32,000 nt of DNA from Deltaproteobacteria bacterium (lineage in GTDB: Bacteria; Desulfobacterota; Binatia; Binatales; Binataceae): the NCBI GenBank assembly GCA_019237115.1, contig JAFAHS010000399.1:52018-84017 (forward strand), read 5' to 3'. The notes under the pieces were generated by a model, which saw nothing but the letters and a program-made list of their open reading frames with translations, did no database searches and had not been told where the DNA came from. Both the position numbers and the translations under genes were made by a program. Shown here piece by piece: positions 3,808-32,000 of this stretch (the first letter of the stretch is position 1; each line of letters starts with the position of its first letter).

Positions 3808-3938
3808 CGTACCACCACCTTCCGGACCCGCACACCGATTTCAGAAGGTCGGGATTATTCGCAAACCACGAGCCGGCTTCAAGAGTCTCTTACCAATTGA
3901 CATCTTATCCCAACCGCTTTTAACAGGATATCCACAGG

Positions 3939-4655: not shown

Positions 4656-4850
4656 CCGCCAACACCCATCGCAGCACCGCGCCGTATGCTACCGGTTACC
4701 GATAGCCGTGCGCGAGACGCCCGCTTGAGGATCGGCAATTTGTATGCGAGATAGGAAACGGTCTCACTTCGTGGGACCTTAGCTGCGCAGTCGGCTCATT
4801 GGCGGCCGTCAATCGTGCGCGGTACGGGCAATCATCCAGGAGGTATTGCG

Positions 4851-5570: not shown

Positions 5571-5585
5571 GCGGGTCGTTGGCGC

Positions 5586-6050: not shown

Positions 6051-6051
6051 C

Positions 6052-6732: not shown

Positions 6733-6786
6733 GGGAACACTCCAATCTTGGTTTCGCGCGGCATGAGTATCGGCGATTGCACCCGG

Positions 6787-6820
6787 AAAAAAAAGAGCGG
6801 CCGCAGCAACCTGCGACCGC
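6787..6820 (-). terminator. Rho-independent terminator downstream of the VOC-family gene
   Basis: The minus-strand RNA reads GCGGUCGCAG-GUUG-CUGCGGCCGC. This is a 10-bp GC-rich stem with one G.U pair and a 4-nt loop, followed by UC and U8. It lies 28 nt after the stop at 6848. Confidence 0.75.
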
Positions 6821-6847
6821 CCTGTCGAGCCTTGCTGAGAACCGCGG

Positions 6848-7417: not shown

Positions 7418-7459
7418 CGCGGAACCCTCCTGAACGGCAGTTCAGACCGTATGCTCACC

Positions 7460-7488
7460 ATTTAAGTACCGCTCGCGGGGTTTGTCAA
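7460..7488 (-). promoter_or_regulatory. Candidate sigma70-like promoter for the VOC-family gene
   Basis: The minus strand reads TTGACA (7488..7483), a 17-nt spacer, then TTAAAT (7465..7460), about 45 nt upstream of the ATG at 7417. This is a consensus match only. The host sigma specificity is unknown. Confidence 0.3.
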
Positions 7489-7523
7489 AACATCTGACCG
7501 ATCGCTCGAGCACACCCGCCCTG

Positions 7524-13998: not shown

Positions 13999-14142
13999 AA
14001 TCCACTTTTCGTCACCGGCGACGCACCAACCTTCTTAGATGAGGGCGTTCGCTTGCCGCGCGTGCTCGGCTCATCCAGCGTCAGACGACTCATAACAACC
14101 ATTGGTCAATTCGCCGTTCATATGATGCTCTCTGAATATTCA

Positions 14143-14187
14143 AGAGACCGTCAAATAACACTATCGCTCGCTTCACCGACAGTCTCT
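14143..14187. promoter_or_regulatory. Inverted repeat in the leader of the GT4 operon (possible operator or RNA hairpin)
   Basis: AGAGACCGTC (14143-14152) and GACAGTCTCT (14178-14187) are 9/10 complementary, with a 25-nt spacer. The repeat sits in a 244-nt stretch that is visibly less GC-rich. Its right arm ends 56 nt upstream of the GTG at 14243. Confidence 0.3.
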
Positions 14188-14242
14188 AAATTTGTAACCA
14201 CGCGCTTCCCGCAGGCCCCGGTTCGGTTGATGAGGAAACGGC

Positions 14243-15484: not shown

Positions 15485-15486
15485 CG

Positions 15487-17757
15487 ATGTTGACTCCTGG
15501 AGCTCTTGGGAATTGGGCTGAGTGGTTCGGTTCGAGCACCGGCGCGTGGATTGCCGCGACTTTGCTCTTGCTCGGGTTGGCCGCCCTGCTGGGACGGCGA
15601 GTTATCGCGACCGTCCTCACCCTGCGGGCTTCGGCATTTACCCCGCGCATGTCGAGGCTATTGGCGCTCTGGCTGCGGCCGACCAACCACTCGCCTGCCG
15701 AATTCCTTCGCGCCGATGGAGCCGATGAACGGTGGGCGGAGATTCGCAAGCAGGCTATCAACCGCCTCGCCGGCTTCTTTCAGACCCGGTACGCAAAGTC
15801 GATCGCGTGGGGCAACGGGATACGCCAGAGCTTCTCGGATCTGCGCTTCACCGATGCCAATCGCGTCCCCTTTCCCTTCGCGCAATTCATGCGCGAACAC
15901 TTCAGCGTCTGCTCGGTGGTTACGGCCTCCGCCGGACCCCAACTTCGCGATCTCGATGGTCATTGGACTCTCGACGTGAGCGGCTCCTACGGACTCAACG
16001 TGGCTGGATTCGACCACTACAAGGAATGGATGCAGAGGGGGCTTGACCGGGTGAAGGAGCTTGGCCCGGTGCTGGGTCCCCTCCATCCCATCGTCGCCGA
16101 CAACATACGAATCCTCAAATCGATCTCGAAGCTCGATGAAGTGTCGTTCCACATGAGCGGCACCGAGGCGGTGATGGCCGCCATCCGGCTGGCCCGATTC
16201 AATACCCGCCGCAAGCTGATCGTCTGTTTCTCGGGCGCTTATCACGGATGGTGGGATGGCGTGCAGCCCGGGTTGGGCAGCGAACGCACCATCGACGACT
16301 GCCTGACGCTGAAGGAATTGAACCCGGCCTCGCTGGACGTTCTGCGCTGGCGGGCGCACGAGATCGCCGCAATCGTGGTAAACCCCGTTCAATCGTTTCA
16401 TCCCAACTCGCCCCCGCCGAGCGACGCCATCCTGCTGACCAGCGGCGTCCGCAACGCGACCGACTCCACGGCTGCTTACCGGGAATGGCTTGGTAAGCTG
16501 CGCGCCGTGTGCAGCGAACACGAGATTCCGCTCATCTTCGACGAGGTATTCAGCGGCTTTCGCCTGGCCCCCGGCGGAGCGCAGGAGTACTTCGGCGTGC
16601 AAGCGGACATGGTCGTGTACGGGAAAACGGTGGCCGGTGGAATGCCCATCGGAGTGGTCTGCGGCCGCAAAGAACTGATGGCGCGCTTTGATCCCCACCA
16701 TCCGATGCGCATCGCGTATGTGATCGGAACTTTTTCGGCACACCCCGTGGTGATGGGGGCGATGAATGAGTTTTTGAATTGGCTGGTGCAGCCGTCCAGC
16801 ACTACAGAATATGCGACGGCGAATGAGAGGTGTGCCGCGTGGGCGCGCGAGACCAACCAGTTGCTCCTGGATTCCTCACTGCCGGTGCGAGTGATGCAGC
16901 TGGCCACGATATGGACGGTGCTGTTCAAGGAGCCGGGTCGATACAACTGGCTGCTCCAATACTACCTTCGAGCCGAGGGTATCACGCTCAGTTGGGTGGG
17001 AACCGGTCGCTGTATGACCAGTCTGGATTTTACCGAGGAAGATTATCGCAGCCTGCGATCCAAGCTGGTGAGTGCGGTACGCCAGATGAAAAACGACGCC
17101 TGGTGGCTAAGCGAACAACAACAACCACAACGGGATAAACTGATGCGAACACATCTGTTTCGGGAACTCGCCGGAAGTATTGTCAGGGTGCCGAAGCCGT
17201 TGACCAGCTTTTACACCGAGATAATGCATCGCAAACATGACGACCACCTCGCGTCACATAGCAACGTGGTCAACCAGGTCCTCCACCTGCTGAGTTCGAG
17301 CACCTTCATCTTTTGCTATGTGCTGATCTTTTTCGACTTGACCCGCGCGGTATGTCTGGGACTGGCAGCGCTGTTCGTTCGCCAGTTCGGACACGCAGTG
17401 CTGGAGCCGCCCTGCCACGACAAGGAGCAGCTGCTGCTCGGATTCAACACCCGCGATAAGACGCTGATCGTTGCGGGTTACGGTCTGATTCTCGCCGCCG
17501 TGTTGATGAAGGTCCGTCCCGGTTCTTGGGGGGCCGTCGCCGGCGTGGCGCCGACGCTGGCCCATTGGTGGTTCTTCATGACGCTGGCAGTGGTACTCGG
17601 GCACGTGGCGTTTCTTGCCTGGAAGCACACCTTGAGAGACTCCCTAATCTGGTTTGTAAAACTGCTTACCGATCCTTTTACTGACATCGCGGCGTACTAC
17701 GGGAGCCCCTACCGGATTGTTGCGAATCCTCAGGGCCAGAAGCGCGAGCTCGTATAG
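15487..17757 (+). CDS. Membrane-anchored class-III aminotransferase (glutamate-1-semialdehyde aminomutase-like) fused to a C-terminal Mpo1/DUF962-like 4-TM domain
   Basis: 756 aa. There is an N-terminal TM helix (WIAATLLLLGLAALLG). The PLP fold-type-I class III core reads FHMSGTEAVMAAIRLAR, IFDEVFSGFRLAPGG and YGKTVAGGMPIGVVCG, with the Lys codon at 16624-16626. A QQQPQ linker follows. The C-terminal hydrophobic domain carries H-x4-N-x3-H (HSNVVNQVLH, 17257-17286) and FGHAVLE (17386-17406). The ATG lies 2 nt after the GT4 stop, with GGGAGA upstream. Confidence 0.8.
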   Translation: MLTPGALGNWAEWFGSSTGAWIAATLLLLGLAALLGRRVIATVLTLRASAFTPRMSRLLALWLRPTNHSPAEFLRADGADERWAEIRKQAINRLAGFFQTRYAKSIAWGNGIRQSFSDLRFTDANRVPFPFAQFMREHFSVCSVVTASAGPQLRDLDGHWTLDVSGSYGLNVAGFDHYKEWMQRGLDRVKELGPVLGPLHPIVADNIRILKSISKLDEVSFHMSGTEAVMAAIRLARFNTRRKLIVCFSGAYHGWWDGVQPGLGSERTIDDCLTLKELNPASLDVLRWRAHEIAAIVVNPVQSFHPNSPPPSDAILLTSGVRNATDSTAAYREWLGKLRAVCSEHEIPLIFDEVFSGFRLAPGGAQEYFGVQADMVVYGKTVAGGMPIGVVCGRKELMARFDPHHPMRIAYVIGTFSAHPVVMGAMNEFLNWLVQPSSTTEYATANERCAAWARETNQLLLDSSLPVRVMQLATIWTVLFKEPGRYNWLLQYYLRAEGITLSWVGTGRCMTSLDFTEEDYRSLRSKLVSAVRQMKNDAWWLSEQQQPQRDKLMRTHLFRELAGSIVRVPKPLTSFYTEIMHRKHDDHLASHSNVVNQVLHLLSSSTFIFCYVLIFFDLTRAVCLGLAALFVRQFGHAVLEPPCHDKEQLLLGFNTRDKTLIVAGYGLILAAVLMKVRPGSWGAVAGVAPTLAHWWFFMTLAVVLGHVAFLAWKHTLRDSLIWFVKLLTDPFTDIAAYYGSPYRIVANPQGQKRELV

Positions 17758-19636: not shown

Positions 19637-20266
19637 CTATGATTCGGGGCGACCGATAGCTTGATGTCGCTCGCGCCACCAGAAAATCACGATCCCGATA
19701 CTGAACAACACCACTCCTACCGCGACCCATCGCGACGCGACGTGGATCACGTCGGCAACTCGAAACAGCTCGTCACCAACCAGGTAGCCAACCGTAACGA
19801 TGATGAAGCACCACACCAGCGCACCGGAAACGTTCCATCCGAGAAAGCGCCAGAACGGCATACCCGCAGCGCCCGCCATCGGACCAGCCATGAAACGCAC
19901 GCCGGCAATGAAGCGGGCCATGAAGACCGCCTTGCTGCCGTGGGTCTCAAAAAAGGTCTGTAATCGGTCGTAGCGAGAGCGGGCAAACGCGAAACTGCCG
20001 GCGAGGCGGGTAAGCAGCCGTTGACCTCCGGTGCGCCCCAGCAGAAATCCGCAGCAGTCTCCCACAACCGCGCTGAAAACCGTGATGACATACACCCAGC
20101 GCAGGTCGAGAATCTCGCGGCCGGCCAGAAACCCCGCGGCAAGCATCACCGTCTCCTCTGGGACCGGGATGCCCAGATTGCCGATGAACACGCACACGAA
20201 AACTCCCAGGTAACCCCAGGTGGTGAGCCAATCCGCTATATGTTCAGGTCTCAGAATTTCGTGCAT
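19637..20266 (-). CDS. DedA family membrane protein
   Basis: Track ORF trimmed to ATG 20266. WGYLGVFVCVFIGNLGIPVPEETVMLAAGFLAG and SKAVFMARFIAGVRFMAGPMAGAAGMPFWRFL are canonical DedA/SNARE-associated blocks. Confidence 0.85.
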   Translation of the reverse strand: MHEILRPEHIADWLTTWGYLGVFVCVFIGNLGIPVPEETVMLAAGFLAGREILDLRWVYVITVFSAVVGDCCGFLLGRTGGQRLLTRLAGSFAFARSRYDRLQTFFETHGSKAVFMARFIAGVRFMAGPMAGAAGMPFWRFLGWNVSGALVWCFIIVTVGYLVGDELFRVADVIHVASRWVAVGVVLFSIGIVIFWWRERHQAIGRPES

Positions 20267-20384
20267 GCGTTCCTGGCCGCGGCACCGCCCCTGCCAAACG
20301 TGCCCCGGTAGTTTAGCTGGCCCCAAACGGCGGCGGAACTCGTCACAAGTGATGCTTCGGTCCCTGGAAAGCAGCGTGATGAGT

Positions 20385-22691
20385 TCAGCCTTTGCCGGCA
20401 TCCGCGAAGGAGGTGACCGGGCGGGCTTCATCATGCGCTCTCACGGCGGGCAGCCCACGGCGGCCGAGGACCAGGAGACCGGCCGCGACCCACAGTACCA
20501 ACCCCGGCAGCAACGGGTATACGTGCCATCGATTTGCCGCAATGTTCACTTCTGCAAGGTCGTTGCGGCGGTAGAGTTTCACCGGCAAGGACTCGTAAAT
20601 CGTTTGATAACCCGGCGGGGGATCACCCGTTCCGGGGGGCGGGCTAACTTGTTCCAGAATGTACGGCGGGGCCGCTGCCAGCGCTCGCCCGAGATCATTC
20701 ATGCCGCGGACCCGGCTGCCACCCTCCCACAAATTGTTCGGATCGTGTTGGTCCTCGATCGGGTCGTCGTTGATTCCGGTAAGCACCGGGAACTCGAGCA
20801 AAGCCCACCACTGCGAGACATTCGTGCATAGATGGAGGATATGCGTAGCAGGCGTAATTCGGCCGGCAGCGACCTCGTCGTCGAGAACCTTGATCAGGTT
20901 CATATCGGTCGGACCGAAAAGCCACCGCCGATCGGTATGACCCGTCCAGTAACCCAACGAGGCGGTATCGAGGTTAAACGCCCAGTGCTCGCTGATTGAA
21001 TGTTCAAGGGAATCGTAGTCGAGAGGATGTGGGGCCTGGCGCCACGGGTAGATCAGCAAGGCAAGCAGGATGAAAAGAGTCCCTGGACGCGACCAGCGAT
21101 CGTAAGCCAGCGCAAACAGGTATCCCGCCGGCAAGGTCAGAAAAAAAGGACACCAGTAGTCCCACAGCTTGATCCGGATGTCCGATGTCATCATGCCGCC
21201 AGCAGGGGTATGGGAGAGCGTCCGCAGGACCGGATCGAAATACTCGCCAGCAATGCCCAACAGCAGTGCTACCGCCACCAGGCCCGAGTAGCGGGTTTGG
21301 TCCGCCGGCCACTGAACCACGAACGCCGCAATCAGTCCTGCGAAGCACAACAGCGTGAGCAGTGGCAAATTGTCCGCAACCTGTTGATAAAGAGTGAATG
21401 CATTTGCGGCGTGACGATAGAGAACCGCAAGGATGAAGAACGCGATCAGCCCGCGGTTGAGCACGGCAACCAGCCGTCGATCGCGCAAGGCGGCGTCAGG
21501 AGGCATCCATCGCGCGGCCAGGCAAATTGCTGCCACGCCCGCCAATTGCCCGGCCGGGATGATCGGATACGGTGCCCGATGCCCAAGTGCGATAAGATAC
21601 TCGGGCAGCGCGACCAGGGCTGCGCCCGCCAGGGCAACGACCCCGGCGGCAAAGCGCCCAGGGTCGGACTCCGCGAGCCACAGAATCACGCCAACTCCCG
21701 CCACGATCATCGCCAAAGCACCGTCGATTGCATGCGACGCGATACTACAACCCAACATCAAAGCGCCGGCGGCAAACAGCAGCCGACTGCCGCGACTCAT
21801 AAAGAACGCAAGACCCAACGCGACAAGCGCAAAATCGACCGCCGTACCGCGCATGCCCTGGGCCCGGCGAAAGAGGCAGGTAAAGAACAGGAGGAGGCCC
21901 GCGACTCCCCCCGCAGTATCATCGAACACTGTCTTTCCGAGGCGCCAGGTCGCAAAGATCATCAGTGCGGCCATCGGCAGCATCGCTGCGCTCTCCGCAA
22001 GTGCCGCCGGATGAGTATGACTTCCCATTGCCAGAGCCGAGTAGAACAGTTCGAGCGCGGGCGTCTGAGCGTAGGGTCCCCAGCATCCGTAAGGGTCGTT
22101 GTTGAACGGGTCATAGATGCCGAACGTCAGGATCCGCTGTGCGGAAGATGGATATGAAAGCACATCCATAAACGGCACCACTGGAGAGCCAAGTTGTAGG
22201 GGCAAGTAGGAAACCGCGAGCAAGAGGACCGCAAAAGCCGCAAGCTTCTGGCCCGAAGACGGGGTCTGCAACTTCCGGTGGCGGGGCGGGTTCCGCCAAA
22301 GCCAGGCGGTCCCCAAGGCGAGAAGTCCCCACAAGGTCGCCGAATAGAAAAGCCGGATGGGTCCCAACAGGTTGCCGAGCAGAAATGCGAGGATCCAGAC
22401 ACCACCAGCGCCAACCAGAATAGCATCGAACTGCTCCAGTTCGGGCTCAATCCGCAGTGCGAGTCCGCCCAGGACCAGGGTGGCCCAACCCCAGAACGCC
22501 CATACCTTGAGAGCGGCCCACAAAGTCTCGCCGAGCAGCGGACGAATCCCCTCCCATGCCGCCGACCACGACAGATGGTATGGGAATTGGCGCAGACGAT
22601 AGATGGCGAGCAGCGTGACGATCGCGACACCCGCCCACATCACCAGCCATGCGCGTGCCTGTCCGCGCCTGTCTACCATTCCTTGCGCCAC
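20385..22691 (-). CDS. Uncharacterised polytopic membrane protein (about 14+ TM, C-terminal extracytoplasmic domain; GT-C-like architecture is only a guess)
   Basis: 768-aa ORF, strongly hydrophobic through about residue 540. A roughly 180-aa soluble region and a final TM helix follow. The antisense ORF (21000..22157 +) is Arg/Gln-rich low complexity. I recognise no family motif. The start is GTG 22691 or ATG 22679. Confidence 0.65.
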   Translation of the reverse strand: MAQGMVDRRGQARAWLVMWAGVAIVTLLAIYRLRQFPYHLSWSAAWEGIRPLLGETLWAALKVWAFWGWATLVLGGLALRIEPELEQFDAILVGAGGVWILAFLLGNLLGPIRLFYSATLWGLLALGTAWLWRNPPRHRKLQTPSSGQKLAAFAVLLLAVSYLPLQLGSPVVPFMDVLSYPSSAQRILTFGIYDPFNNDPYGCWGPYAQTPALELFYSALAMGSHTHPAALAESAAMLPMAALMIFATWRLGKTVFDDTAGGVAGLLLFFTCLFRRAQGMRGTAVDFALVALGLAFFMSRGSRLLFAAGALMLGCSIASHAIDGALAMIVAGVGVILWLAESDPGRFAAGVVALAGAALVALPEYLIALGHRAPYPIIPAGQLAGVAAICLAARWMPPDAALRDRRLVAVLNRGLIAFFILAVLYRHAANAFTLYQQVADNLPLLTLLCFAGLIAAFVVQWPADQTRYSGLVAVALLLGIAGEYFDPVLRTLSHTPAGGMMTSDIRIKLWDYWCPFFLTLPAGYLFALAYDRWSRPGTLFILLALLIYPWRQAPHPLDYDSLEHSISEHWAFNLDTASLGYWTGHTDRRWLFGPTDMNLIKVLDDEVAAGRITPATHILHLCTNVSQWWALLEFPVLTGINDDPIEDQHDPNNLWEGGSRVRGMNDLGRALAAAPPYILEQVSPPPGTGDPPPGYQTIYESLPVKLYRRNDLAEVNIAANRWHVYPLLPGLVLWVAAGLLVLGRRGLPAVRAHDEARPVTSFADAGKG

Positions 22692-22776: not shown

Positions 22777-24334
22777 TCAATGCGCCTCCGCTGGTTCGAC
22801 CGTGCCGGAAGGAACCCCCTCTTTTGGTAGGAGAAAGAGCAACGGCAGGACGACTAAGAACATCGGCACCACCAGCCAGAAACAATCGTTGTACGCCATC
22901 ATCGTCGACTGACGGTTGATCAAGGCGTTCATCATGGCAAGGTCGCGCCGCTGCCCAGGTGCACTGAACAATCCGGCACCCAGCAAGGCGTTGCGAAACT
23001 CCGCGTCGGCCTGGCGGAACGTGGGGTTGGTCGCCGAGATGGAATCGACCAGGTCCGAACGACGGAACTGCCCTCTGCGAGCCACCAGGGTCGCCAGTGC
23101 CGCGTAGGCCACGTTTCCCGCTTCGCGGCGGGTCAGAGTGTAGAGGCTGGAAGCGGCAGTCATCGCGTAGCGCGGAATCGTACTGAGCGAGACGGTCGAA
23201 AGCGTCACCATCGACGCGCCCATGCCGATACCACTCATGACCAGGATGGGCAGAAAACTCCAAAACCCGACGTACAGCGTGAAATGACCAAGCCGCCAAT
23301 AGGCATAGGCAAGCAAGAGCACTCCCGCGCCGATCAGCATGCGCGGGCTCAGCAGATTGTAAAGCCGCCCGACGATGGGCATCGCAAGCAGCATGGTCAA
23401 GGTACGTGGCATCAGAACCAGGCCCGCCTGATACGCAGGATAGTGGAGCAGTTCCTGCGTGAACTGCGGCAACAGGAAGCTTGATCCGAACAGTGCGAAC
23501 CCGATCACAACGCCCAGGCCGCAGCCAACGCTCAGTGGGACGTTTCTGAACAGACGAAAATCCACCACCGGTTCATCCTTGAAGAACATTTCCCACCCTA
23601 CCAACGCCGCCAGCGCAAGCGCCGCCACCACCGTCCCGAAAACGATCCAATGGTTGGCGAACCAGTCGACTTCCTCTCCGCGCTCGAGTACCACCTGCGC
23701 AGCGGTGAGGCCGATCGTCAGCAGGAGAATCCTTCCCCAATCGATCGCGGCGACCCCGCGTTTCAGATATGGAGGGTCATGCACGAACGCGCTCACCATC
23801 AGGATTCCCACCACACAAAACGGAACGTTGATGTAAAAGACCCACTGCCAGCCATAGTTGTCGACCAGCCAGCCGCCGACCACCGGACCGATCGCGGGAG
23901 CGGTGAAAAGTTTCCCGTGCGATGGCCTGGGAGCAGGGCATCAGGCTGCCGCCGCCGATGCCCTGCAGCACTCGGTAAAAGATGAGCTGGCCGAACGTCT
24001 TTGAGGTGCCGGCCAGCACCGAGCCCACGATAAACAGGAACATGGACAGCAGGAACAGCTGTTTGCGGCCGAGCAGCATCGTCCACCACGCCGCCATGGT
24101 GATCATGATGATCTCGGCAATCGAATAAGCGGTGGACACCCAGGTTATGGTGAGCAGATCCTGTCCGAAGCCGCCCATCATATGCGGCATGGCCACATTC
24201 ACCACCGTCGCATCCATCACCGAGAGAAAGGTGCCGATCATGACGGACCCGGCAACCAGCCATTTGCCGGAGGTTCCGTATTCGCTGCTGGCAGGGGGCA
24301 GGGTTATTCGGGGTGTTGCAACTCCGCTCGACAT
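22777..24334 (-). pseudogene. DHA2 (EmrB/QacA-type) MFS transporter, disrupted by an internal deletion plus frameshift
   Basis: Two consecutive minus-strand ORFs (23777..24334 and 22777..23883) together give a 14-TM EmrB-like protein. The N-part reads ...LQGIGGGSLMPCSQAIARETF (to about 23916) and then goes out of frame. The homologous continuation TAPAIGPVVGGWLVDNYGWQWVFYINVP starts at about 23914 in another frame. The roughly 17 residues normally between these blocks (PPxxRxxAxxxW...) are missing. Confidence 0.75.
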
Positions 24335-26199: not shown

Positions 26200-27051
26200 T
26201 CAGACGATCCAGCTTTTCGCCAGCTCCTCCAATTCCGCGTCGTATTTGTCCGCCGCCAGCGTGGGCGGGAATAGAACCAGTCGATGTGCGCCCGCGGCGC
26301 GGTAGGCCTCGACCGCTGCCCGCGAATCTCCGCCACCCACCGGCGAGAAGATGGTTATTTCAAGCTTCGAAAAATCGCGATTCACATCCGCGCAGAGCTG
26401 ACGCAGCTTCGCCAGTTCGGTCTTGAGATCGTCCGGCTTGAGCGCGATCGGGGCCCATCCGTCGCCAATCAGCGCGGTGTTGCGGAGCGCACGCTCGCCA
26501 CCGGCTCCGATGTGCACCGGCGGATGCGGCTTTTGCGCCGGCTTGGGATTGCTGCGAAGCGCCGGGAACTTCACAAATTCCCCTTCGAAGCTTGCTTCCT
26601 CTCGCGTCCACAGTTCCTTCATCGCGCGGATATACTCGCGCGTCATCGGCCAGCGTCGGCGAAAATCGACACCCATGATCTCGCTCTCGTCGCGCAGCCA
26701 GCCCGCGCCGATTCCGAACAACATCCTCCCACCCGAGTAGTAGTCGAGGGTCGCGACCTCTTTGGCCAGGTTGAAGGGATCACGTTCAGGGACCAGGCAG
26801 ATTCCCGTACCGAGCTTGATGCGATTGGTCGCGCCGGCCGCGAGCGCAAGTCCCACGAACGGATCGATCATGTGCGAGTAGACTTCCGGGATTTTGCCGT
26901 CGCCCCGTGGGAACGGAGTCTTGGGGTTGACCGGCATTATCGCGTGCTCGGGCAGCCAGAATGACTCAAACCCCAGAGCCTCGCACTTGCGCGCGACCGC
27001 AACCGGATGAGCGGTCGACGACGCCACGAACGCCAGCACTCCGATTTTCAT
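26200..27051 (-). CDS. Luciferase-like monooxygenase (LLM) class, probable F420-dependent oxidoreductase
   Basis: The sequence ALGFESFWLPEH...TNRIKLGTGICLVPERDPFNLAKEVATLDYYSGGRMLFGIGAGW...FEGEFVKF matches the LLM TIM-barrel pattern. ATG 27051 has GGAGG 5 nt upstream. Confidence 0.85.
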   Translation of the reverse strand: MKIGVLAFVASSTAHPVAVARKCEALGFESFWLPEHAIMPVNPKTPFPRGDGKIPEVYSHMIDPFVGLALAAGATNRIKLGTGICLVPERDPFNLAKEVATLDYYSGGRMLFGIGAGWLRDESEIMGVDFRRRWPMTREYIRAMKELWTREEASFEGEFVKFPALRSNPKPAQKPHPPVHIGAGGERALRNTALIGDGWAPIALKPDDLKTELAKLRQLCADVNRDFSKLEITIFSPVGGGDSRAAVEAYRAAGAHRLVLFPPTLAADKYDAELEELAKSWIV

Positions 27052-27375
27052 GCTCACCTCCGCCCGCGTGGGTAGAGGTACTAGTAGCGCGAATCGAACC
27101 GAGGGGGGTATCGAAACGACCGGGCCGGAGTCTCAGCGATCGCGGACGCGACCGTCATCGAGAGTCGTACACCGCCGAACCCTCGACGGCGCGTCCGGGC
27201 TCCCTGCACTCACTCCCAATGCTCAACAAAGCCCGCTCAACCACGACGACGTCGCACACCTGATGGCCAGGGTGCGCGCACGGCAGTCTTCACCGACGCC
27301 CCTTTATCTCCGAGGTGGTTGTACGGCAACGAGAGAGCTGTGGCTTTTGAAGCCGACCTTGGTTTTGCGTACCGT

Positions 27376-27615
27376 TTACAGTTCGCCGTTGAGGGCCCGC
27401 GTGGCCATCACCAGCCCGGTGGCACCCAGGGTGGAAACCATTATCGCGCTGAACAGATGATGGGCATGCACTCCGAACACGGCAAATGTCCATCCGCCCA
27501 CGATTCCGCCGAGCAATCCGAGCAAGATGTCGGCAATTACCCCGTAGCCTCTTCCGCGGATCAGCTTTCCGGCCAGCCATCCGGAAATGAGTCCGACTAA
27601 AACCGACGCAATCAT
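27376..27615 (-). CDS. GlsB/YeaQ/YmgE family (transglycosylase-associated) small stress membrane protein
   Basis: 79 aa. GLISGWLAGKL.RGRGYG...DILLGLLGGIVGGW is the family signature. AAGGAG lies upstream. Confidence 0.85.
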   Translation of the reverse strand: MIASVLVGLISGWLAGKLIRGRGYGVIADILLGLLGGIVGGWTFAVFGVHAHHLFSAIMVSTLGATGLVMATRALNGEL

Positions 27616-27882
27616 CTATGCTGCACACTCCTTTGTTGTGAGCCGGCGTCGAACCGGCTGCACAGGACTAACAGCAAAAGGTCTGCCAAGTTTCCCGATA
27701 AGCAGATCCGATGAAATTTGCGCGGTACTCGGGCGAAGGTGCCGTAATCTCACTGCGGTAGCGCCGCGTGGCCGCTGCTTTCACCAACCCGTCAGGACCT
27801 CAAGCGGTCTTCGAGGCGGGCAGCCTGGGCCCTGCCGATTCTTCGTTCGGAGAGAGGGAAACCGTCCGTGCGGAAGCGATGC

Positions 27883-28356
27883 CTACCCGCCGAAAAAATC
27901 CTTGGCGTACACGAATCTGCCCACGCCGGCGGCGCGGGCCGCCCGTTCGTCGACTTCCTGATCGCCGACCATCGTCGAGGTTTTCAGATCCACGCCGTAG
28001 AGTTCCGCGAGCTCGCTTACCATTCCGCCCTGCGGCTTGCGGCAATGGCACTTGTCGGCATCGTCGTGGGGACAGATTTGCCAGGCGGTGAGAATACCGC
28101 CGAGCTGGTTATCGAGTTCGCTCAGCGCGGCTTCGACCGCGGCCATCGTAAAGCGTCCCCGCTTGATCTTGGATTGGTTGGTCACGATGAGCAGCAAGTG
28201 ATCCCGAATGGGGGCCAGCTTTTCCGCGACGCCCGGGAGCAACTCGACAACGATCCTGCCCCGGGCATCAACCGGCAGCTCGTTATCGCGGTCGAGCCGC
28301 ACCAGGGTGCCGCCGAGGTCGAGAAACAACCCCTTGTTTCCGGTGATGTCTGCCAT
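27883..28356 (-). CDS. HAD superfamily subfamily IIIA phosphatase, GmhB/histidinol-phosphatase-like (atypical motif I)
   Basis: 157 aa. Motif II is IVTNQS. The Zn-finger-type insert CPHDDADKCHCRKP is diagnostic of the GmhB/HisB-N group. Motif IV is MVGDQEVDE. Motif I reads FLDLGGTL (DxG) instead of DxDGT. Confidence 0.8.
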   Translation of the reverse strand: MADITGNKGLFLDLGGTLVRLDRDNELPVDARGRIVVELLPGVAEKLAPIRDHLLLIVTNQSKIKRGRFTMAAVEAALSELDNQLGGILTAWQICPHDDADKCHCRKPQGGMVSELAELYGVDLKTSTMVGDQEVDERAARAAGVGRFVYAKDFFGG

Positions 28357-28381
28357 CAGGTTCGTCAGCCGATGGCTATCT

Positions 28382-29740
28382 TCACGCGGCGCGCCAGTCC
28401 AGGTGATCGCGAACGTGCGCGAAGACCTCGTCGAGGATCGCCACCCCGGTCTCGGCCTGTTCTTCGCTGATGACCAGCGGCGGATTGATCCGGACGCGCG
28501 GAAAATAGGTCATCGTGATGACTCCGCGGCGTAGTGCTTCGAGGAAAATCTGCTCGGTCACCCTGCGGCTTAGGGGTTCGCGCGTCTTGAGATCGCGCAC
28601 CAGATCGATTCCAATCAGCAGCCCTTTCCCGCGCACGTCGCCGATGAACTCGTACTTCTCTTTGAGCGTGTTCAGGCGGTGCAGCATCTGGCCACCGATT
28701 TTGCGGGAGTTGTCAACGAGCTTTTCATCCTTGATGATCTTGATGGTTTCGGCAACCGCCGCCGCGGCAAGTGGATTCCCACCGTAGCTCGAGGACGACG
28801 CGCTGGGCTTGCCGAACGGCTCCGACTTGCCGAGCTGCTCGCTCATCAGCACCGCGGACACCGGAAAGCCCGCGCCCATTCCCTTGCCCAGGGTAACGAT
28901 ATCGGGCTCTACCCCGGTATGATCAATGCCCCACATCTTGCCGGTGCGACCAAAGCCGGTAATCATTTCGTCGGCGATGAGCAGGGCGCCGTTTTCCTTT
29001 GCGACCGACTTGATCGCGGGCAGCCAATCATCCGGCGGGATTACGTTGCCGGCGGTCCCCTGCATCGGCTCGACCAGCACGGCCGCGACTTCTCCTGCCG
29101 AGGAATTCTTGATTTGGTCGCGCGCAAACTCGACGCACAGCAGACCACACGAGGGGTGCGTCAACTTGAATGGGCAGCGATAGCAGTCCGCATAGGGGAC
29201 CTGGTAGCGTCCGCCAGGCAGTGGTCCATAACCCTTCTTCGACTCGTCACCAATCAGGCCAAGTACCCCACCGGTCTTGCCGTGAAATCCTCCCCAGAAG
29301 CTTACGACCTCGTGCTTCTTGGTCGCGGAACGGGCCAGGCGCAAGCCCGCCTCTACCGCCTCGGCCCCGCCGCTATACAGATGCGAACGATTCAAACCCT
29401 TCGGGGCAACCTCCGACAGCAGCCTGAAGGCCTCGCTGCGTTCCCTGGTGGCAAAGGTTCCAACCGACAGGCGTTCGGCCTGTTTGCTGATGACTTTCGC
29501 CATCCGCGGATGTCCATGGCCGAGGCTTGCCACCGCGATGCCTGCGTAGAGATCGATGTAGGTATTGCCGTCGGCGTCGGTGAGGGTGGCGCCTTCGCCA
29601 TGGTCCAACGCGATGCCTGCCAATTGCGAGACCCGTTGGCGCCCGGATGCAACGTACTTCTGTTCTTCGTCGTAGATCTTGCGGGATTCAGGTCCTGGAA
29701 TAGCGGTCTTGATGGAGTGCAGTTTAACCTTCGGTGTCAT
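28382..29740 (-). CDS. Class-III (GabT/omega-type) PLP-dependent aminotransferase
   Basis: 452 aa. IPGPES...DADGNTYIDLYAGIAVASLGHGHP, LIADEMITGFGRTGKMWG and the Lys block TLGKGMGAGFPVSA are present. Confidence 0.9.
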   Translation of the reverse strand: MTPKVKLHSIKTAIPGPESRKIYDEEQKYVASGRQRVSQLAGIALDHGEGATLTDADGNTYIDLYAGIAVASLGHGHPRMAKVISKQAERLSVGTFATRERSEAFRLLSEVAPKGLNRSHLYSGGAEAVEAGLRLARSATKKHEVVSFWGGFHGKTGGVLGLIGDESKKGYGPLPGGRYQVPYADCYRCPFKLTHPSCGLLCVEFARDQIKNSSAGEVAAVLVEPMQGTAGNVIPPDDWLPAIKSVAKENGALLIADEMITGFGRTGKMWGIDHTGVEPDIVTLGKGMGAGFPVSAVLMSEQLGKSEPFGKPSASSSSYGGNPLAAAAVAETIKIIKDEKLVDNSRKIGGQMLHRLNTLKEKYEFIGDVRGKGLLIGIDLVRDLKTREPLSRRVTEQIFLEALRRGVITMTYFPRVRINPPLVISEEQAETGVAILDEVFAHVRDHLDWRAA

Positions 29741-29782
29741 CAGCTGTGCGCGTCACGCCCTTCCCAAACTTGGTGCTAGAGG

Positions 29783-30604
29783 CTACCGCGCACGAGCAAG
29801 CAACGAAAGGGCCCGTCGTGCTATCGCCCGGGCGGCGGGGGCGCGCACCCGGCTGAAGCTCGGCCAATCGTTGAAGTCGACTATCGCAAATCCGCGCTCA
29901 TCCAGAATGGCATCACCGCCCCAGACTTCCAGGCCAAGCGCGGCAGAGGCTTTACGCGCCGCCTCTGAAAGCTCGCGAACCGCTGCTTCCGGAATTTCGC
30001 CGGCGGCCGGCAGGGCGGTGAAGTACGCGCCGCCACCAACGCCGTAGAATTTGATGAGCGCTCCGGGGCATTCCTGCTGTACGTAGGCACGCCGCACACC
30101 GCGGCGCGCCAGGGCGTTGAGCTGGACCTCCACCTGCCCCTTCCCGACTGCTCGCTGCACGTCCTCCTCCCCCAGCGCATGCAGATCACCGCGCTTGACG
30201 AACACGGGCAGATCGAGATCGATCGCCCCCAGCACGCGGTGGTCGAGCCGTTCGTCGGTGCGAACCAGCGCCCCGGCCGGCGTGGGAACACCGGCCCGGG
30301 TGAGCCCCGGTGCCAGCAGGTCGCGATAGCAGTTGCGGATGGCGAGTGCCGAGTTGATGGCTACCGCACCGGTGCGCTCGACCTCCGCCAGGCGCCGTAG
30401 CGCCGGCTCGCTCTGGCACATCGCGAGCACCAGATCGGTGCTGACTTCGTGCTGGTCGAGAAACTCCCCGGGTGTCATCGCCCGGGTCTCGACCCCTTCC
30501 CGGCGCAATTCGGCCAGTGACTCTTCGAGGATCGCAGCGTCAGCGGCGACCTTGCCCGGCGAAAATTCCCGCTCGCGGTAGATTCCGATTGTTCGATAAC
30601 TCAT
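29783..30604 (-). CDS. ATP-grasp ligase (RimK/glutathione-synthetase-like)
   Basis: Track ORF 29783..30895 trimmed to ATG 30604, 2 nt after the upstream stop. The upstream part of that ORF overlaps the nucleotidyltransferase gene out of frame. PVFVKRGD, YVQQECPGALIKFYGVGG and LGLEVWGGDAILDERGFAIVDFNDWPS fit the ATP-grasp Lys, hinge and Mg-ligand blocks. Confidence 0.7.
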   Translation of the reverse strand: MSYRTIGIYREREFSPGKVAADAAILEESLAELRREGVETRAMTPGEFLDQHEVSTDLVLAMCQSEPALRRLAEVERTGAVAINSALAIRNCYRDLLAPGLTRAGVPTPAGALVRTDERLDHRVLGAIDLDLPVFVKRGDLHALGEEDVQRAVGKGQVEVQLNALARRGVRRAYVQQECPGALIKFYGVGGGAYFTALPAAGEIPEAAVRELSEAARKASAALGLEVWGGDAILDERGFAIVDFNDWPSFSRVRAPAARAIARRALSLLARAR

Positions 30605-30606
30605 TG

Positions 30607-31311
30607 TCAACCCGCTAACATCCGGCGCGCGGCCTCGAGGTCGGCGGCTTCGTCTATATCGATCGCCCCTTCGACTTCGATGGCAGCGAGACGAACTTGT
30701 TCTTCCAGCAACATCTGTAGGAACGCCCGCAGAGCCGCCAGTTTGCGTTCGCGAGCAGCCGCCGACCACCGGAAGATCGTGGTCGGCAACCAGTACAATC
30801 CGGCGGTGACCAGCGAAGTCTCGCGCTGTCCCAGCGAGGCTATCAACCCCGTGCTGGTTACTTCTGCAAAGAGCGGTTTGCGGTCGCCGCGCCATTTCGC
30901 AACCGCCAGCACCCCATCCGCGAGCATTGGGAACCTCGAGGCGCGCGCCTGCGTAACAAACCGACGAAACTCGGGGTCCGGAACCATTGCATCGACGGTG
31001 GCAAGCAGAAAATCTCCCGCCGGCAACGCCTCGCCCAGCACCAGCAGCGATTCCATCGAGCTTTGCGTGTCGCGAACAATCAATCGCAGCTGCCGGGGAA
31101 AGCTGCTCCCGCGTGCCAGCGAAGCGGTTTCCGAATTCACTATCGCGAGCACCTCCCGCGCGCCCGAGGACACCATCGCGCCCGCCTGGCGAGCGAGCAG
31201 CGAAACACCGCCAACCTCGACCAGCGGCTTAGGCAGTTCCACGCCGCTGGAGGCTCGCAGTCGCTCGCCCCGACCCGCGGCGATTATCGCGCCCTGGAAA
31301 CCGGTCACCAT
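30607..31311 (-). CDS. Nucleotidyltransferase (LicC/MurU/HddC-like small NTP-transferase)
   Basis: Trimmed to ATG 31311. The N-terminal AIIAAGRGERL......LPKPLVEVGG is the sugar/alcohol-phosphate nucleotidylyltransferase signature. It is 234 aa with no left-handed beta-helix tail. The start overlaps the upstream stop (ATGGTGA at 31311..31305). Confidence 0.75.
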   Translation of the reverse strand: MVTGFQGAIIAAGRGERLRASSGVELPKPLVEVGGVSLLARQAGAMVSSGAREVLAIVNSETASLARGSSFPRQLRLIVRDTQSSMESLLVLGEALPAGDFLLATVDAMVPDPEFRRFVTQARASRFPMLADGVLAVAKWRGDRKPLFAEVTSTGLIASLGQRETSLVTAGLYWLPTTIFRWSAAARERKLAALRAFLQMLLEEQVRLAAIEVEGAIDIDEAADLEAARRMLAG

Positions 31312-32000
31312 CGCAGGTTCTCGAGTTCGCCCAAAGAGGCGATCGTATAGTCCGCGCTCGCACAGTACCGGCCGTCGGCCGACCCCCCCGCGCGATACCA
31401 CACGGTGGTAAGGCCCAGCCGGTGCGCCGGCTCGCAGTCCTTCTCCGGCGAATCGCCCACCATCGCAGCGGCCGCCGGTGGCACGCCCAGCCCGCGTAAC
31501 GCCGCCTCAAAGATTCCCGGTTGCGGCTTGAAGATGCCCACCTGACTGGAATCGGTAATCGAGTCGATCATCTTCTTCATGCCGGCTTCCTGCAAAATCC
31601 GCTCGAGATTTCCGTAGAAGTTAGACACCACCCCGATCCGAAAACGCCGCCTGAGCGCCTTAAGAGTTCCCCGATTCGCGTCCAGGCCCTCTCGCGTTGC
31701 GCCGATGAAGCCTGCGGCAATCTGCTCGACGGTTCGATGGCGCCCCTTGGCATCCGATGAAGCGAACCTCGCGCGCAGCCACTGCGGACCTTCCTGGGCG
31801 AGAAACTCGACCTGATTGCCGACCAGGAAACGGATCAAATCGACCATCCCGAAACGACGGATCACCCTGCCGGCCCGGTACCCCGCCCGAGTTGCGTGCT
31901 CGAAGGCGCCATCCAGTTCCTCGCGCGTAAGGTCGATTCCCGCAGCTCGATACTGGGCCAGGAACCGGTCGAGCCAGTGCAGCGGCCCATCGAGCGTGCC
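31305..32000 (-). CDS. HAD-IA family hydrolase (5' end outside the window)
   Basis: The frame stays open to the window edge. Translation from 32000 begins GTLDGPLHWL..., the tail of HAD motif I (DxDGTLxD). Motif II is GVVSNF, the motif III Lys is in IFKPQPGIF, and motif IV is MVGDSPEKD. The track start at 31865 is an internal GTG. Confidence 0.75.
   Translation of the reverse strand, partial: GTLDGPLHWLDRFLAQYRAAGIDLTREELDGAFEHATRAGYRAGRVIRRFGMVDLIRFLVGNQVEFLAQEGPQWLRARFASSDAKGRHRTVEQIAAGFIGATREGLDANRGTLKALRRRFRIGVVSNFYGNLERILQEAGMKKMIDSITDSSQVGIFKPQPGIFEAALRGLGVPPAAAAMVGDSPEKDCEPAHRLGLTTVWYRAGGSADGRYCASADYTIASLGELENLRW

Follow-up and report, generated by a model that had tools for sequence, protein, structure and literature searches.

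The five-gene operon that closes the window (the whole stretch of DNA analysed here, 32,000 nucleotides of a Candidatus Binataceae bacterium) is the Binatia version of a multi-phylum module that most likely builds and attaches an inositol-type phosphate lipid head group, which in Binatia is probably aminated. The specific reading proposed here, to which we give a probability of about one half, is a Kennedy-type pathway for a CDP-(amino)cyclitol lipid head group, of which these genes supply the cytoplasmic half. The features concerned are:

31305..32000, minus strand: HAD-IA hydrolase gene, the first of the operon, with about 10 N-terminal codons past the window
30607..31311, minus strand: alcohol-/sugar-phosphate nucleotidyltransferase, 234 aa (NTP_transf_3)
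29783..30604, minus strand: uncharacterised ATP-grasp protein, 273 aa (by its predicted fold)
28382..29740, minus strand: class-III (GabT-like) PLP aminotransferase, 452 aa (Aminotran_3)
27883..28356, minus strand: HAD-IIIA hydrolase of the GmhB/HisB-N/PNKP type, 157 aa (TIGR01662, TIGR01656)
26200..27057, minus strand: F420-dependent LLM-class oxidoreductase, a possible accessory dehydrogenase, assigned with low confidence (TIGR03619)

The five co-directional genes and their junctions lie where the first-pass annotation had placed them: ATGGTGA (31311..31305) is common to the HAD-IA stop and the nucleotidyltransferase start, the nucleotidyltransferase stop (30609-30607) and the ATP-grasp ATG (30604) are 2 nt apart, and gaps of 42 nt (ATP-grasp stop ending at 29783, aminotransferase ATG at 29740) and 25 nt (aminotransferase stop ending at 28382, HAD-IIIA ATG at 28356) separate the remaining genes. 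Its domain calls held for four genes through HMM matches, the fold of the ATP-grasp gene being given by structure prediction only. The operon had also been thought to continue beyond 32000, but only its first gene does so: no stop interrupts the HAD-IA frame between 31305 and the window edge, where it starts at GTLDG, the end of motif I, whereas full-length orthologues (242-244 aa) start MISAFLFDFGGTLDG, so that some ten codons are missing. Relatives at 77-82% identity carry their next upstream gene on the other strand, and in all syntenic relatives the genes beyond HAD-IA are divergent and encode an MlaC-like protein, a CDP-alcohol phosphotransferase (hereafter CDP-OH transferase) and a B12-radical-SAM enzyme, a divergent operon that takes the place of the kinase, isomerase or glycosyltransferase expected upstream. 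The five genes are linked in the same order in 16 to 18 of the 19 Binatia species-level loci; their arrangement is therefore not due to chance, and the idea of a dedicated, conserved multi-enzyme pathway rather than a housekeeping set is supported.

Conservation extends well beyond Binatia. Across 80 species-level loci retrieved via the ATP-grasp motif, the ATP-grasp gene is adjoined by a nucleotidyltransferase (76/80) and by an HAD-IA gene (77/80), and has a CDP-OH transferase within 10 kb in 70 loci, the four families constituting a module that is kept in five lineage groups. Module proteins also occur as domain fusions (NTP+grasp, HAD+NTP+grasp, grasp+CDP-OH transferase, and flippase-like+HAD in one open reading frame of locus L050), and a CDP-OH transferase+HAD fusion has been reported in Prevotella veroralis (PMC9246714). 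The gene order in Phocaeicola (Bacteroides) vulgatus ATCC 8482 is nucleotidyltransferase, ATP-grasp, CDP-OH transferase, flippase-like protein, HAD, MFS transporter and inositol-phosphate synthase; this locus was named a 'putative alternative inositol-lipid cluster' from in-silico prediction (Heaver et al. 2022, Nat Microbiol, PMC9246714), in a species that makes inositol phosphoceramide (PMC9246714), and was still 'not yet fully characterized' in the 2023 literature. The pathway, earlier taken as undescribed, thus has an orthologous Bacteroides cluster that is described, but whose role is predicted in silico only. Both versions share orthologous nucleotidyltransferase and HAD-IA (FD[FY]GGT) proteins, a CDP-OH transferase in the module, and an ATP-grasp gene that lies between the transferase genes in P. 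vulgatus, as in related loci; however, the published model comprises three enzymes only and never mentions the ATP-grasp gene (PMC9246714), and it is this unstudied enzyme that is missing from the gut-Bacteroides model. The Binatia version differs in adding the class-III aminotransferase, the HAD-IIIA hydrolase, the B12-radical-SAM enzyme and MlaC, in its long, AF2299-like CDP-OH transferase (only weakly similar, E about 1e-6 to 1e-11), and in having no inositol-phosphate synthase nearby. In 26 of the 41 Bacteroidota loci, such a synthase is encoded no further than 10 kb away; it shares one operon with the aminotransferase and a GFO/IDH/MocA dehydrogenase in loci L032, L061 and L062, and is found about 7.5 kb from the cluster in the Binatia-group locus L024, where it is 55% identical to that of L032. 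No synthase, GFO dehydrogenase or flippase-like gene was found within reach in the window and its closest relatives, and support for an inositol origin of the head group here thus comes from more distant relatives.

The nucleotidyltransferase reaches NTP_transf_3 with 39.5 bits (cut-off 27), and its GxGxRL...KPL signature is complete and does not vary across the alignment. The profile of its orthologues aligns over the full length with the inositol-phosphate cytidylyltransferases (IPCT) 2xme and 4mnd (E 6.5e-10 and 1.9e-9) and over a partial length with RmlA-type enzymes. It is proposed to be a CTP:(amino)cyclitol-phosphate cytidylyltransferase, although its sequence does not reveal the nucleotide specificity, a point against the proposed reading. 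Activation of a phospho-intermediate with NMP is the best-supported part of the earlier scheme. AF2299 and IPCT/DIPPS are the nearest structures to the Binatia CDP-OH transferase, whose best NCBIfam matches are inositol-phosphate-using enzymes; its score for bifunctional IPCT/DIPPS (69.8 bits) stays far under the equivalog cut-off (580). MlaC adjoins the cluster in Binatia, MlaE, MlaF and MlaD are encoded inside that of Ignavibacteriales (L062), and many lineages carry a flippase-like LPG_synthase_TM gene. This context favours an inositol-derived, probably aminated head group on a membrane lipid over the glycan decoration first envisaged.

Several known routes resemble such a scheme in part. 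In the synthase-IPCT-BEPIS system of Rhodothermus marinus, as cited in PMC4587543, and in archaeal IPCT/DIPPS, a soluble cytidylyltransferase activates a cyclitol phosphate that a CDP-OH transferase passes to an alcohol; in that citation, the R. marinus CDP-inositol route (Jorge et al. 2015) is described with synthase, cytidylyltransferase and transferase only. This three-enzyme route, as cited, counts against the reading proposed here, which leaves the need for extra enzymes unexplained. Scores of the proteins here also stay far under the equivalog cut-offs of these systems. The PIP synthase/PIP phosphatase route (BT_1523/BT_1525; mycobacteria) likewise starts from inositol phosphate, contains a dephosphorylation and yields an inositol phospholipid, but it uses CDP-diacylglycerol as donor and needs no soluble nucleotidyltransferase, and PIP synthase models are matched by the Binatia CDP-OH transferase only below cut-offs.

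What does the ATP-grasp protein do? It has no domain match in Pfam, reaches no Pfam or NCBIfam model of either the ITPK or the RimK/LysX/Ddl group, and is annotated in source records only as 'hypothetical' or 'RimK-type ATP-grasp'. Structure prediction confirmed the fold, with the AlphaFold2 model (pLDDT 96.2) at TM 0.75 to Ddl/LysX/RimK. The family is a distinct one of 893 representative clusters, with invariant residues that include K137, K185, D243 and N245, and its profile retrieves both groups from the PDB: PsnB (1.6e-5), ITPK4 (3.6e-5), RimK (5e-5) and ITPK1 (about 1e-3). The ATP-grasp fold is common to both groups, with Lys and Mg-ligand positions conserved; likeness to RimK/LysX/Ddl concerns the overall fold and central domain, that to ITPK4 and ITPK1 a C-terminal Mg-site motif, YGGD...[IV]DxNDWPSF (GxD...[IV]DxN..PSF in common), within a similarity limited to about 55 C-terminal residues. 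ITPK1 phosphorylates inositol 3-phosphate, the product of the synthase (PMC6900528). The recurrent fusions of the nucleotidyltransferase to the ATP-grasp domain (P0137, P0164, P0170, P0188, P0213, P0243, P0191) suit a kinase and a cytidylyltransferase acting in consecutive steps, and since the P. vulgatus lipid is plain inositol phosphoceramide, the enzyme appears to add nothing permanent there. It is thus probably a cyclitol (or cyclitol-phosphate) kinase.

The aminotransferase (Aminotran_3, 335.6 bits; no NCBIfam equivalog cut-off reached) marks the aminated variant of the module. Its orthologues adjoining ATP-grasp genes match at E 1e-128 to 1e-280, while an unrelated paralogue reaches 1e-57, and in L035 it shares one open reading frame with the ATP-grasp protein. 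A GFO/IDH/MocA dehydrogenase gene follows the aminotransferase gene in 15 of 15 non-Binatia loci and is restricted to aminotransferase-positive loci (20/33 vs 0/47). The F420-dependent oxidoreductase (TIGR03619, 252 bits vs 166.9), found downstream of the operon in most Binatia loci, directly adjoins this dehydrogenase gene in L006-L009, L018 and L024. By analogy, aminotransferase and dehydrogenase, sometimes with the synthase, match known aminocyclitol logic: the proposed route to the hygromycin A aminocyclitol uses a synthase (Hyg18), a phosphatase (Hyg25), a PF01408 dehydrogenase (Hyg17) and an aminotransferase (Hyg8) (PMC10949010), and synthase, HAD, GFO/IDH/MocA and aminotransferase genes co-occur in the three loci with the joint operon. 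The comparison has its differences, as the aminotransferase here is of class III, which pairs with PF01408 dehydrogenases far less often than the DegT type, the dehydrogenase is missing from the Binatia window, and the product would be CMP-activated and lipid-attached instead of part of an antibiotic. Literature searches for a lipid with an inosamine head group found none, which counts against the proposed reading.

Two hydrolases would provide dephosphorylation. HAD-IA passes the cut-offs of Pfam Hydrolase/HAD_2 and TIGR01549, and among solved structures it lies closest to PH1655/PH0459, HDHD3, haloacid dehalogenases and YihX; in its motif I, FD[FY]GGT, conserved in 82 orthologues, Gly replaces Asp+2, the general acid/base normally used by HAD phosphatases. 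HAD-IIIA (TIGR01662, 69.1 vs 44.6; TIGR01656, 85.3 vs 84.15) is Binatia-specific: 16 of the 19 Binatia loci carry it, compared with none of the 61 others, and its motif I is DL[G/A]GT. The proposed phosphatase steps are weak, because both HADs are devoid of Asp+2 and the nearest structures of HAD-IA include dehalogenases.

Other readings of the same genes must be weighed against this one. Closest to the original idea, but unlikely, is a true ATP-grasp ligase that would form an amide or ester between a carboxylate, from an amino acid or acidic metabolite, and the (amino)cyclitol in the same lipid context: the top 50 Foldseek neighbours are all carboxylate-amine ligases (Ddl, LysX/ArgX, RimK, VanA; TM up to 0.75), RimK and the ester-forming graspetide cyclase PsnB align over most of the length, the weak NCBIfam matches are RimK and LysX, and the gene adjoins the aminotransferase or is fused to it. 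Yet the family is present in 40 of 41 Bacteroidota-like modules that lack an aminotransferase, the inositol lipid reported there is unmodified inositol phosphoceramide, the D-x-N of the Mg-site motif is the form aligned to ITPK kinases, and the usual fusion partner is a nucleotidyltransferase, which needs a phosphorylated substrate. As the enzyme also occurs in aminotransferase-free modules (Bacteroidales, Sphingobacterium), it cannot depend on the amine product of that enzyme, and the suggested parallel with Campylobacter capsule amide ligases is not supported. Nor is the synthesis of a nucleotide sugar for a glycan, through half of an NDP-heptose pathway or MurU-type sugar-1-phosphate salvage, which is highly improbable even though the nucleotidyltransferase profile matches RmlA and GDP-mannose pyrophosphorylase-type enzymes best over a partial length, its sequence taken singly matches MurU over the N-terminal 50 residues, and GmhB is the best NCBIfam match of HAD-IIIA. 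This last score is 87.5 bits for a cut-off of 178, with DLGGT in the window copy instead of DxDGT; no isomerase or kinase is found in the window or any related locus, none of 88 loci has a linked GmhA/HldE-type gene or glycosyltransferase, and the universal partner is a CDP-OH transferase, not an NDP-sugar user.

The lipid nature of the acceptor may itself be questioned. A soluble phosphodiester compatible solute, like di-myo-inositol phosphate or glycerophospho-inositol, would agree with the IPCT/DIPPS and AF2299 likeness of the CDP-OH transferase, with its same long form and cytosolic N-terminal domain, and with two putative phosphatases acting on a phosphorylated intermediate; it is nevertheless improbable given the low equivalog score, the repeated linkage to MlaC/MlaDEF lipid-transport and flippase-like genes, the correlation of the orthologous Bacteroides cluster with an inositol lipid, and the mesophilic soil and gut lineages. 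There is similarly little chance that a phospho-(amino)cyclitol decorates the bacteriohopanepolyol side chain in hopanoid producers (among them Binatia and Syntrophobacteraceae), as a phospho-linked counterpart of the cyclitol-ether system hpnIJKLM, which likewise groups B12-radical-SAM, flippase-like and MlaC-like proteins about a lipid head group that bears a cyclitol. In Desulfoferrobacter suflitae the operon starts with a bona fide HpnJ gene (739 bits vs 577.6), HpnL and HpnM are the best NCBIfam matches of the flippase-like and MlaC-like proteins, and Candidatus Binatus has HpnH and squalene-hopene cyclase genes 4-9 kb downstream. However, HpnL (112 vs 196, in other lineages) and HpnM (56-68 vs 160) scores are well below cut-off, the radical-SAM protein of Binatia is no HpnJ (80 bits; 24% identical to the D. 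suflitae one), attachment here would use a CDP-OH transferase and not a glycosyltransferase, and the window contains no hopanoid genes. The core module is also abundant in Bacteroidales, in which, to our knowledge, hopanoid production is not known.

Gene order, protein families, cross-lineage conservation, fusions and the linkage to inositol-phosphate synthase and lipid-transport genes in other lineages are observed; each substrate, the kinase activity of the ATP-grasp protein, what the two HAD enzymes do and which lipid accepts the head group are inferred. The preferred CDP-(amino)cyclitol lipid pathway could proceed as follows. Myo-inositol phosphate, from a synthase encoded elsewhere in the genome, would be dephosphorylated by a HAD enzyme, and the free cyclitol oxidised by the GFO/IDH/MocA dehydrogenase in other lineages and here maybe by the F420-dependent oxidoreductase. 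The class-III aminotransferase may then convert the ketone into an inosamine-type aminocyclitol, to be re-phosphorylated by the ATP-grasp protein and turned into a CDP-cyclitol by the nucleotidyltransferase. The divergent CDP-OH transferase just past the window would transfer the phospho-cyclitol to a lipid alcohol, and the product could be modified or moved by the B12-radical-SAM enzyme and the MlaC-like protein.

The five genes of the operon lie on the minus strand where the first-pass annotation had placed them, and the junctions that it had read between them are exact:

27883..28356, minus: HAD-IIIA protein, its ATG at 28356 preceded by a 25-nt gap
28382..29740, minus: class-III aminotransferase, its ATG at 29740 preceded by a 42-nt gap
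29783..30604, minus: ATP-grasp protein, its ATG at 30604 separated by a 2-base spacing from the nucleotidyltransferase stop (30609-30607)
30607..31311, minus: nucleotidyltransferase, its start overlapping the HAD-IA stop in ATGGTGA (31311..31305)
31305..32000, minus: HAD-IA protein, its frame open to the window edge

Pfam and NCBIfam support the family assignments of four genes (HAD-IA; NTP_transf_3; Aminotran_3, 335.6 bits; HAD-IIIA), and the ATP-grasp call, which has no Pfam support, is backed by structure prediction. The operon had also been expected to run on past 32000, which is not the case: the HAD-IA frame begins at the edge with GTLDG, the end of HAD motif I, and full-length orthologues have 242-244 aa and the N-terminus MISAFLFDFGGTLDG, so that only about ten codons are absent, and relatives carry a divergently transcribed operon upstream. 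An exact protein look-up for contigs extending the window gave matches ending inside or just upstream of the ATP-grasp gene and none past 32000, and the upstream context is therefore drawn from relatives (L004, L005 and L009-L011, loci whose ATP-grasp proteins are 77-82% identical to that of the window). Their divergent operon encodes an MlaC-like protein, a 400-aa CDP-alcohol phosphotransferase and a B12-binding radical-SAM enzyme. In L004 (5084-7611, minus), which corresponds to the stretch expected just past position 32000, the phosphotransferase has a cytosolic N-terminal domain of about 190 aa, as do AF2299 and IPCT/DIPPS, and overlaps by 4 nt the radical-SAM gene, whose best family match is BchE (106 bits vs a cut-off of 481). 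A promoter and terminator scan of 27000-32000 returned nothing over shuffled expectation, and no minus-strand terminator past the operon.

A one-genome-per-species scan with the family motif [IV]DxNDWPSF yielded 594 relatives of the ATP-grasp protein, of which 80 loci were kept and their ORFs searched with the window proteins and their neighbours. Named homologues come mostly from Candidatus Binataceae and Candidatus Binatus, and the 80 loci fall into five lineage groups: Binatia, Desulfobacterota (Syntrophobacteraceae, Desulfobacterales and the isolate Desulfoferrobacter suflitae), Verrucomicrobiota, Ignavibacteria, and Bacteroidota (Phocaeicola vulgatus ATCC 8482, Duncaniella muris, Muribaculaceae and Sphingobacterium). 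The linkage of the genes, on which the idea of a dedicated pathway depended, holds among the 19 Binatia-group loci, where HAD-IA, nucleotidyltransferase and aminotransferase genes are each found in 18, the CDP-alcohol phosphotransferase in 17, and the HAD-IIIA and radical-SAM genes in 16 each. Across all 80 loci, the ATP-grasp gene has an adjacent nucleotidyltransferase in 76 and a HAD-IA neighbour in 77, with a CDP-alcohol phosphotransferase at most 10 kb away in 70.

A search of 50%-identity representatives resolved the ATP-grasp family into 893 clusters, and its long members, read by Pfam, include several types of fusion: nucleotidyltransferase with ATP-grasp (six representatives), HAD with nucleotidyltransferase and ATP-grasp (representative P0191, 802 aa), and ATP-grasp with CDP-alcohol phosphotransferase (P0269, 700 aa). 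Single ORFs also join ATP-grasp and aminotransferase in locus L035, HAD and nucleotidyltransferase in L070, and, in L050, both nucleotidyltransferase with ATP-grasp and the flippase-like protein with HAD. These fusions imply joint action of the four activities, probably at the membrane. Clustering at 90% identity places the P. vulgatus ATP-grasp protein (283 aa) in one group with the neighbouring 316-aa CDP-alcohol phosphatidyltransferase, a sign either of fused members or of an artefact of the clustering.

The P. vulgatus locus (L049) has the order nucleotidyltransferase, ATP-grasp, CDP-alcohol phosphotransferase, LPG_synthase_TM flippase-like protein, HAD and MFS transporter, with a myo-inositol-1-phosphate synthase 2 kb beyond the transporter, and is the putative alternative inositol-lipid cluster described by Heaver et al. 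2022 (PMC9246714). There, BVU_RS13095, RS13105 and RS13115 were proposed to form CDP-inositol and transfer it to lipid, which would account for the inositol phosphoceramide of P. vulgatus and Prevotella veroralis, species without the genes used by B. thetaiotaomicron; the authors describe the functions as unconfirmed, and the text makes no mention of the ATP-grasp gene lying between BVU_RS13095 and BVU_RS13105, two of the three genes it names. Source names for this protein are only "hypothetical protein" or "RimK-type ATP-grasp enzyme". The window nucleotidyltransferase, an orthologue of BVU_RS13095, matches the L049 protein over its full length (9e-26), likewise stands beside an ATP-grasp gene and conserves the catalytic signature, and the HAD-IA protein, an orthologue of BVU_RS13115, matches the HAD of L049 (phmmer E 3e-22). 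The CDP-alcohol phosphotransferase of Binatia, encoded outside the window and divergently transcribed in the 17 Binatia loci that have it, is a 400-aa AF2299-like protein that matches the Bacteroides enzyme at only 1e-6 to 1e-11. The synthase gene is absent from the window and from L004-L023, and lies near the cluster in 26 of the 41 Bacteroidota loci, as well as in L032, L039, L061 and L062. Searches of the literature for ATP-grasp enzymes in CDP-inositol pathways, for inosamine lipids and for later work characterising the alternative cluster yielded only Heaver 2022 and a review of 2023, in which the route is still described as uncharacterised. Ether inositol phospholipids are made via CDP-inositol in Rhodothermus marinus by a synthase, IPCT and BEPIS (cited in PMC4587543); as cited there, the Rhodothermus operon comprises neither an ATP-grasp nor a HAD gene, both of which belong to the present module. 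Tannerella forsythia has a BEPIS homologue and no synthase, and uses exogenous inositol only (PMC4587543).

A soluble nucleotidyltransferase together with a CDP-alcohol phosphotransferase points to a CDP-alcohol (Kennedy-type) transfer, in which the former would activate a cyclitol phosphate and the latter would pass the head group to a lipid. The nucleotidyltransferase profile aligns with IPCT over its full length (E 6.5e-10) and only partially with RmlA-type enzymes, which nevertheless score higher; nucleotide and substrate are therefore not readable from its sequence. The Binatia CDP-alcohol phosphotransferase is nearest AF2299 (E 2.5e-17), then IPCT/DIPPS, and its best family matches are enzymes handling inositol phosphate, all under cut-offs. 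Membership of the IPCT/DIPPS equivalog (NF041135, 580 bits) was rejected for both the nucleotidyltransferase (27.7) and the phosphotransferase (69.8). A CDP-(amino)cyclitol lipid head-group pathway, of a known but partly characterised kind, is the best explanation of the operon. The dedicated pathway with NMP activation proposed in the first-pass annotation is supported, with a lipid head group in place of the glycan it had envisaged as one target, and the analogy to MurU-type salvage appears wrong. Since the universal partner is a CDP-alcohol phosphotransferase, the context also argues against the analogy to the Campylobacter jejuni HS:2 glucuronamide system of aminotransferase, ATP-grasp amidoligase and HAD phosphatase; PDB sequence matches included no Cj1435-Cj1438-type chain.

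The ATP-grasp enzyme, conserved and unstudied, is the most useful lead. Pfam and NCBIfam gave it no usable assignment, no family model scoring above its cut-off, and the structure search called for earlier recovered the fold (AlphaFold2 pLDDT 96.2, pTM 0.91; Foldseek vs PDB, TM 0.75 at E ~1e-15 for Ddl, LysX and RimK). As modelled, the protein has the three-domain fold, ATP-binding Lys and Mg-binding acidic/Asn residues of the ATP-grasp superfamily, to which it belongs; K137, K185, D243 and N245 are strictly conserved, and D231 almost so. Scores for the RimK and LysX families are far under their cut-offs (TIGR00768, 24.4 bits vs 143.4; TIGR02144, 23.7 vs 275.6).

Between a kinase and a ligase role for this enzyme, we favour a kinase, with a confidence just short of even. 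In the profile search, ITPK4 (3.6e-5) and four ITPK1 sequences (~1e-3) are matched only over profile positions 202-256, where the Mg-site motif aligns; the resemblance to an ITPK motif is confined to this stretch, the C-terminal 55 residues. The Ins(3)P that the synthase produces is a substrate of ITPK1 (PMC6900528), which also favours a kinase, as does the repeated fusion to a nucleotidyltransferase, whose substrate must be phosphorylated. Moreover, the lipid reported from P. vulgatus is unmodified inositol phosphoceramide, so that the ATP-grasp enzyme does not seem to modify that lipid permanently. In the aminated variant, a kinase would be logically required if oxidation and transamination act on the free, dephosphorylated cyclitol, as in known aminocyclitol pathways. 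A ligase, which we consider rather unlikely, would agree with the 50 best structural neighbours of the model, all ligases and none an ITPK, and with RimK and PsnB profile matches equal to those of the ITPKs, but would fit less readily with a lipid that bears no permanent mark.

The class-III aminotransferase beside the ATP-grasp gene forms a specific orthologous group (E 1e-128 to 1e-280, vs 1e-57 for an unrelated paralogue in L015) and is present in 33 of the 80 loci. A GFO/IDH/MocA oxidoreductase is confined to these loci (20/33 vs 0/47), and outside Binatia it comes after the aminotransferase in 15 of 15. The order in L032 is synthase, HAD, nucleotidyltransferase, ATP-grasp, aminotransferase, GFO/IDH/MocA oxidoreductase and flippase-like protein, and in L062 (Ignavibacteriales) nucleotidyltransferase, MlaE, MlaF, MlaD, ATP-grasp, aminotransferase, CDP-alcohol phosphotransferase, GFO/IDH/MocA oxidoreductase, flippase-like protein, HAD and synthase. 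As a synthase, a phosphatase, a PF01408 dehydrogenase and an aminotransferase make up the proposed aminocyclitol route to hygromycin A (PMC10949010), we infer that the same set of enzymes in this variant would aminate the cyclitol. GFO/IDH/MocA oxidoreductase, synthase and flippase-like genes are not within reach in the window or its closest relatives; in the Binatia-group locus L024, a synthase sharing 55% identity with the L032 enzyme lies about 7.5 kb away from the cluster. Within Binatia, the lineage-specific HAD-IIIA gene takes the place behind the aminotransferase, and downstream of the operon follows an F420-dependent LLM oxidoreductase (TIGR03619, 252 bits vs 166.9), directly beside the GFO/IDH/MocA oxidoreductase gene in several Binatia loci; this F420-dependent enzyme might conceivably be an accessory dehydrogenase.

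Both HAD proteins lack the Asp+2 general acid/base of motif I, which reads FD[FY]GGT in all 82 HAD-IA orthologues and DL[G/A]GT in HAD-IIIA. The solved relatives nearest HAD-IA include PH0459 (DFVGT), HDHD3, haloacid dehalogenases and YihX, so that "phosphatase" is an assumption; pyrophosphatase and other HAD roles are possible. The last gene of the operon belongs to the HAD-IIIA subfamily (TIGR01662, 69.1 vs 44.6; TIGR01656, 85.3 vs 84.15) and conserves VTNQS, CRKP, GDQxxD and CxH..CxC. Its reading as GmhB, with the heptose pathway this had evoked, has to be abandoned (NF006506, 87.5 vs 178; TIGR00213, 58.8 vs 149.6): motif I is not the DxDGT of GmhB, and no GmhA or HldE gene was found in any locus.

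That the acceptor of the head group is a hopanoid is a minor rival reading. The first gene of the D. suflitae operon is a true HpnJ (TIGR03471, 739 bits vs 577.6), the flippase-like and MlaC-like proteins have HpnL and HpnM as best matches, under cut-offs, and HpnH and a squalene-hopene cyclase lie 4-9 kb away in Candidatus Binatus. However, the radical-SAM enzyme of Binatia (L004) is not HpnJ (80 bits vs 577.6; 24% identity to the D. suflitae protein), and the core module is frequent among Bacteroidales. In the D. suflitae locus (L040), HpnJ (7091-8551) opens an operon of HAD, nucleotidyltransferase, ATP-grasp, aminotransferase, GFO/IDH/MocA oxidoreductase and flippase-like genes, with a BREX-3 PglZ gene just upstream; the same first position is taken by inositol-phosphate synthase in L032 and L046.

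Returning to the CDP-(amino)cyclitol reading, the fullest form of it is tentative (probability roughly 0.3): Binatia, Syntrophobacteraceae and other Desulfobacterota, Verrucomicrobiota and Ignavibacteria would make an undescribed class of membrane lipid with an amino-cyclitol (inosamine-type) phosphate head group. A new ATP-grasp family would supply the missing cyclitol kinase of its bacterial Kennedy-type synthesis, and in the alternative inositol-lipid pathway of gut Bacteroides and Prevotella this kinase would be a fourth enzyme that had been overlooked. For the species of these genera that lack the B. thetaiotaomicron genes, the model of inositol-lipid synthesis published in 2022 is a three-enzyme proposal. 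The alternative module has a fourth enzyme, the unannotated ATP-grasp protein, as an integral and frequently fused component, and candidate substrates for it can now be named. The aminotransferase and dehydrogenase variant, found in a number of soil and sediment lineages, uncultured or little studied, and in one cultured carrier, Desulfoferrobacter suflitae DRH4, predicts an aminated cyclitol phospholipid, which would alter membrane surface charge. Unidentified aminophospholipids are common in species descriptions, and the predicted lipid could be one of them.

Between the operon and the F420-dependent oxidoreductase lies a gene for a 79-aa glycine-rich membrane protein (27376-27615, minus), conserved at the same position in Binatia loci and inverted in Candidatus Binatus; it has no NCBIfam match, the precomputed Pfam entry for the identical gene in L001 and L002 is "-", and by eye it resembles GlsB/YeaQ/YmgE. 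An MFS transporter at 22777-24334 (minus) is split into two overlapping ORFs (23777..24334 and 22777..23883), as it is in the independent metagenome contig L001; the split is due either to a genuine frameshift or pseudogene, or to an error common to both assemblies. At 20385-22691 (minus), a 768-aa polytopic membrane protein of no Pfam or NCBIfam family is encoded where AT skew is strongly positive (reaching +0.34 over 19-24 kb), and its syntenic neighbour in L004 has a weak YfhO match. Other genes of the window are:

429-1466: ScpA
2428-3807: replicative helicase DnaB
7524-10265: 913-aa UPF0182 membrane protein
within 12394-17757, plus: AMP-binding enzyme
within 12394-17757, plus: GT4 glycosyltransferase, best NCBIfam match N-acetylglucosaminyl-phosphatidylglycerol synthase (142 bits vs 480)
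within 12394-17757, plus: unusually long protein of 756 aa with a glutamate-1-semialdehyde-aminomutase-like class-III PLP domain (residues 141-530)
19637-20434: DedA/UptA-like protein

The stretch from 429 to 10265 is an ordinary housekeeping context, and the three adjacent plus-strand genes of 12394-17757 may represent a second lipid or glycolipid modification locus.
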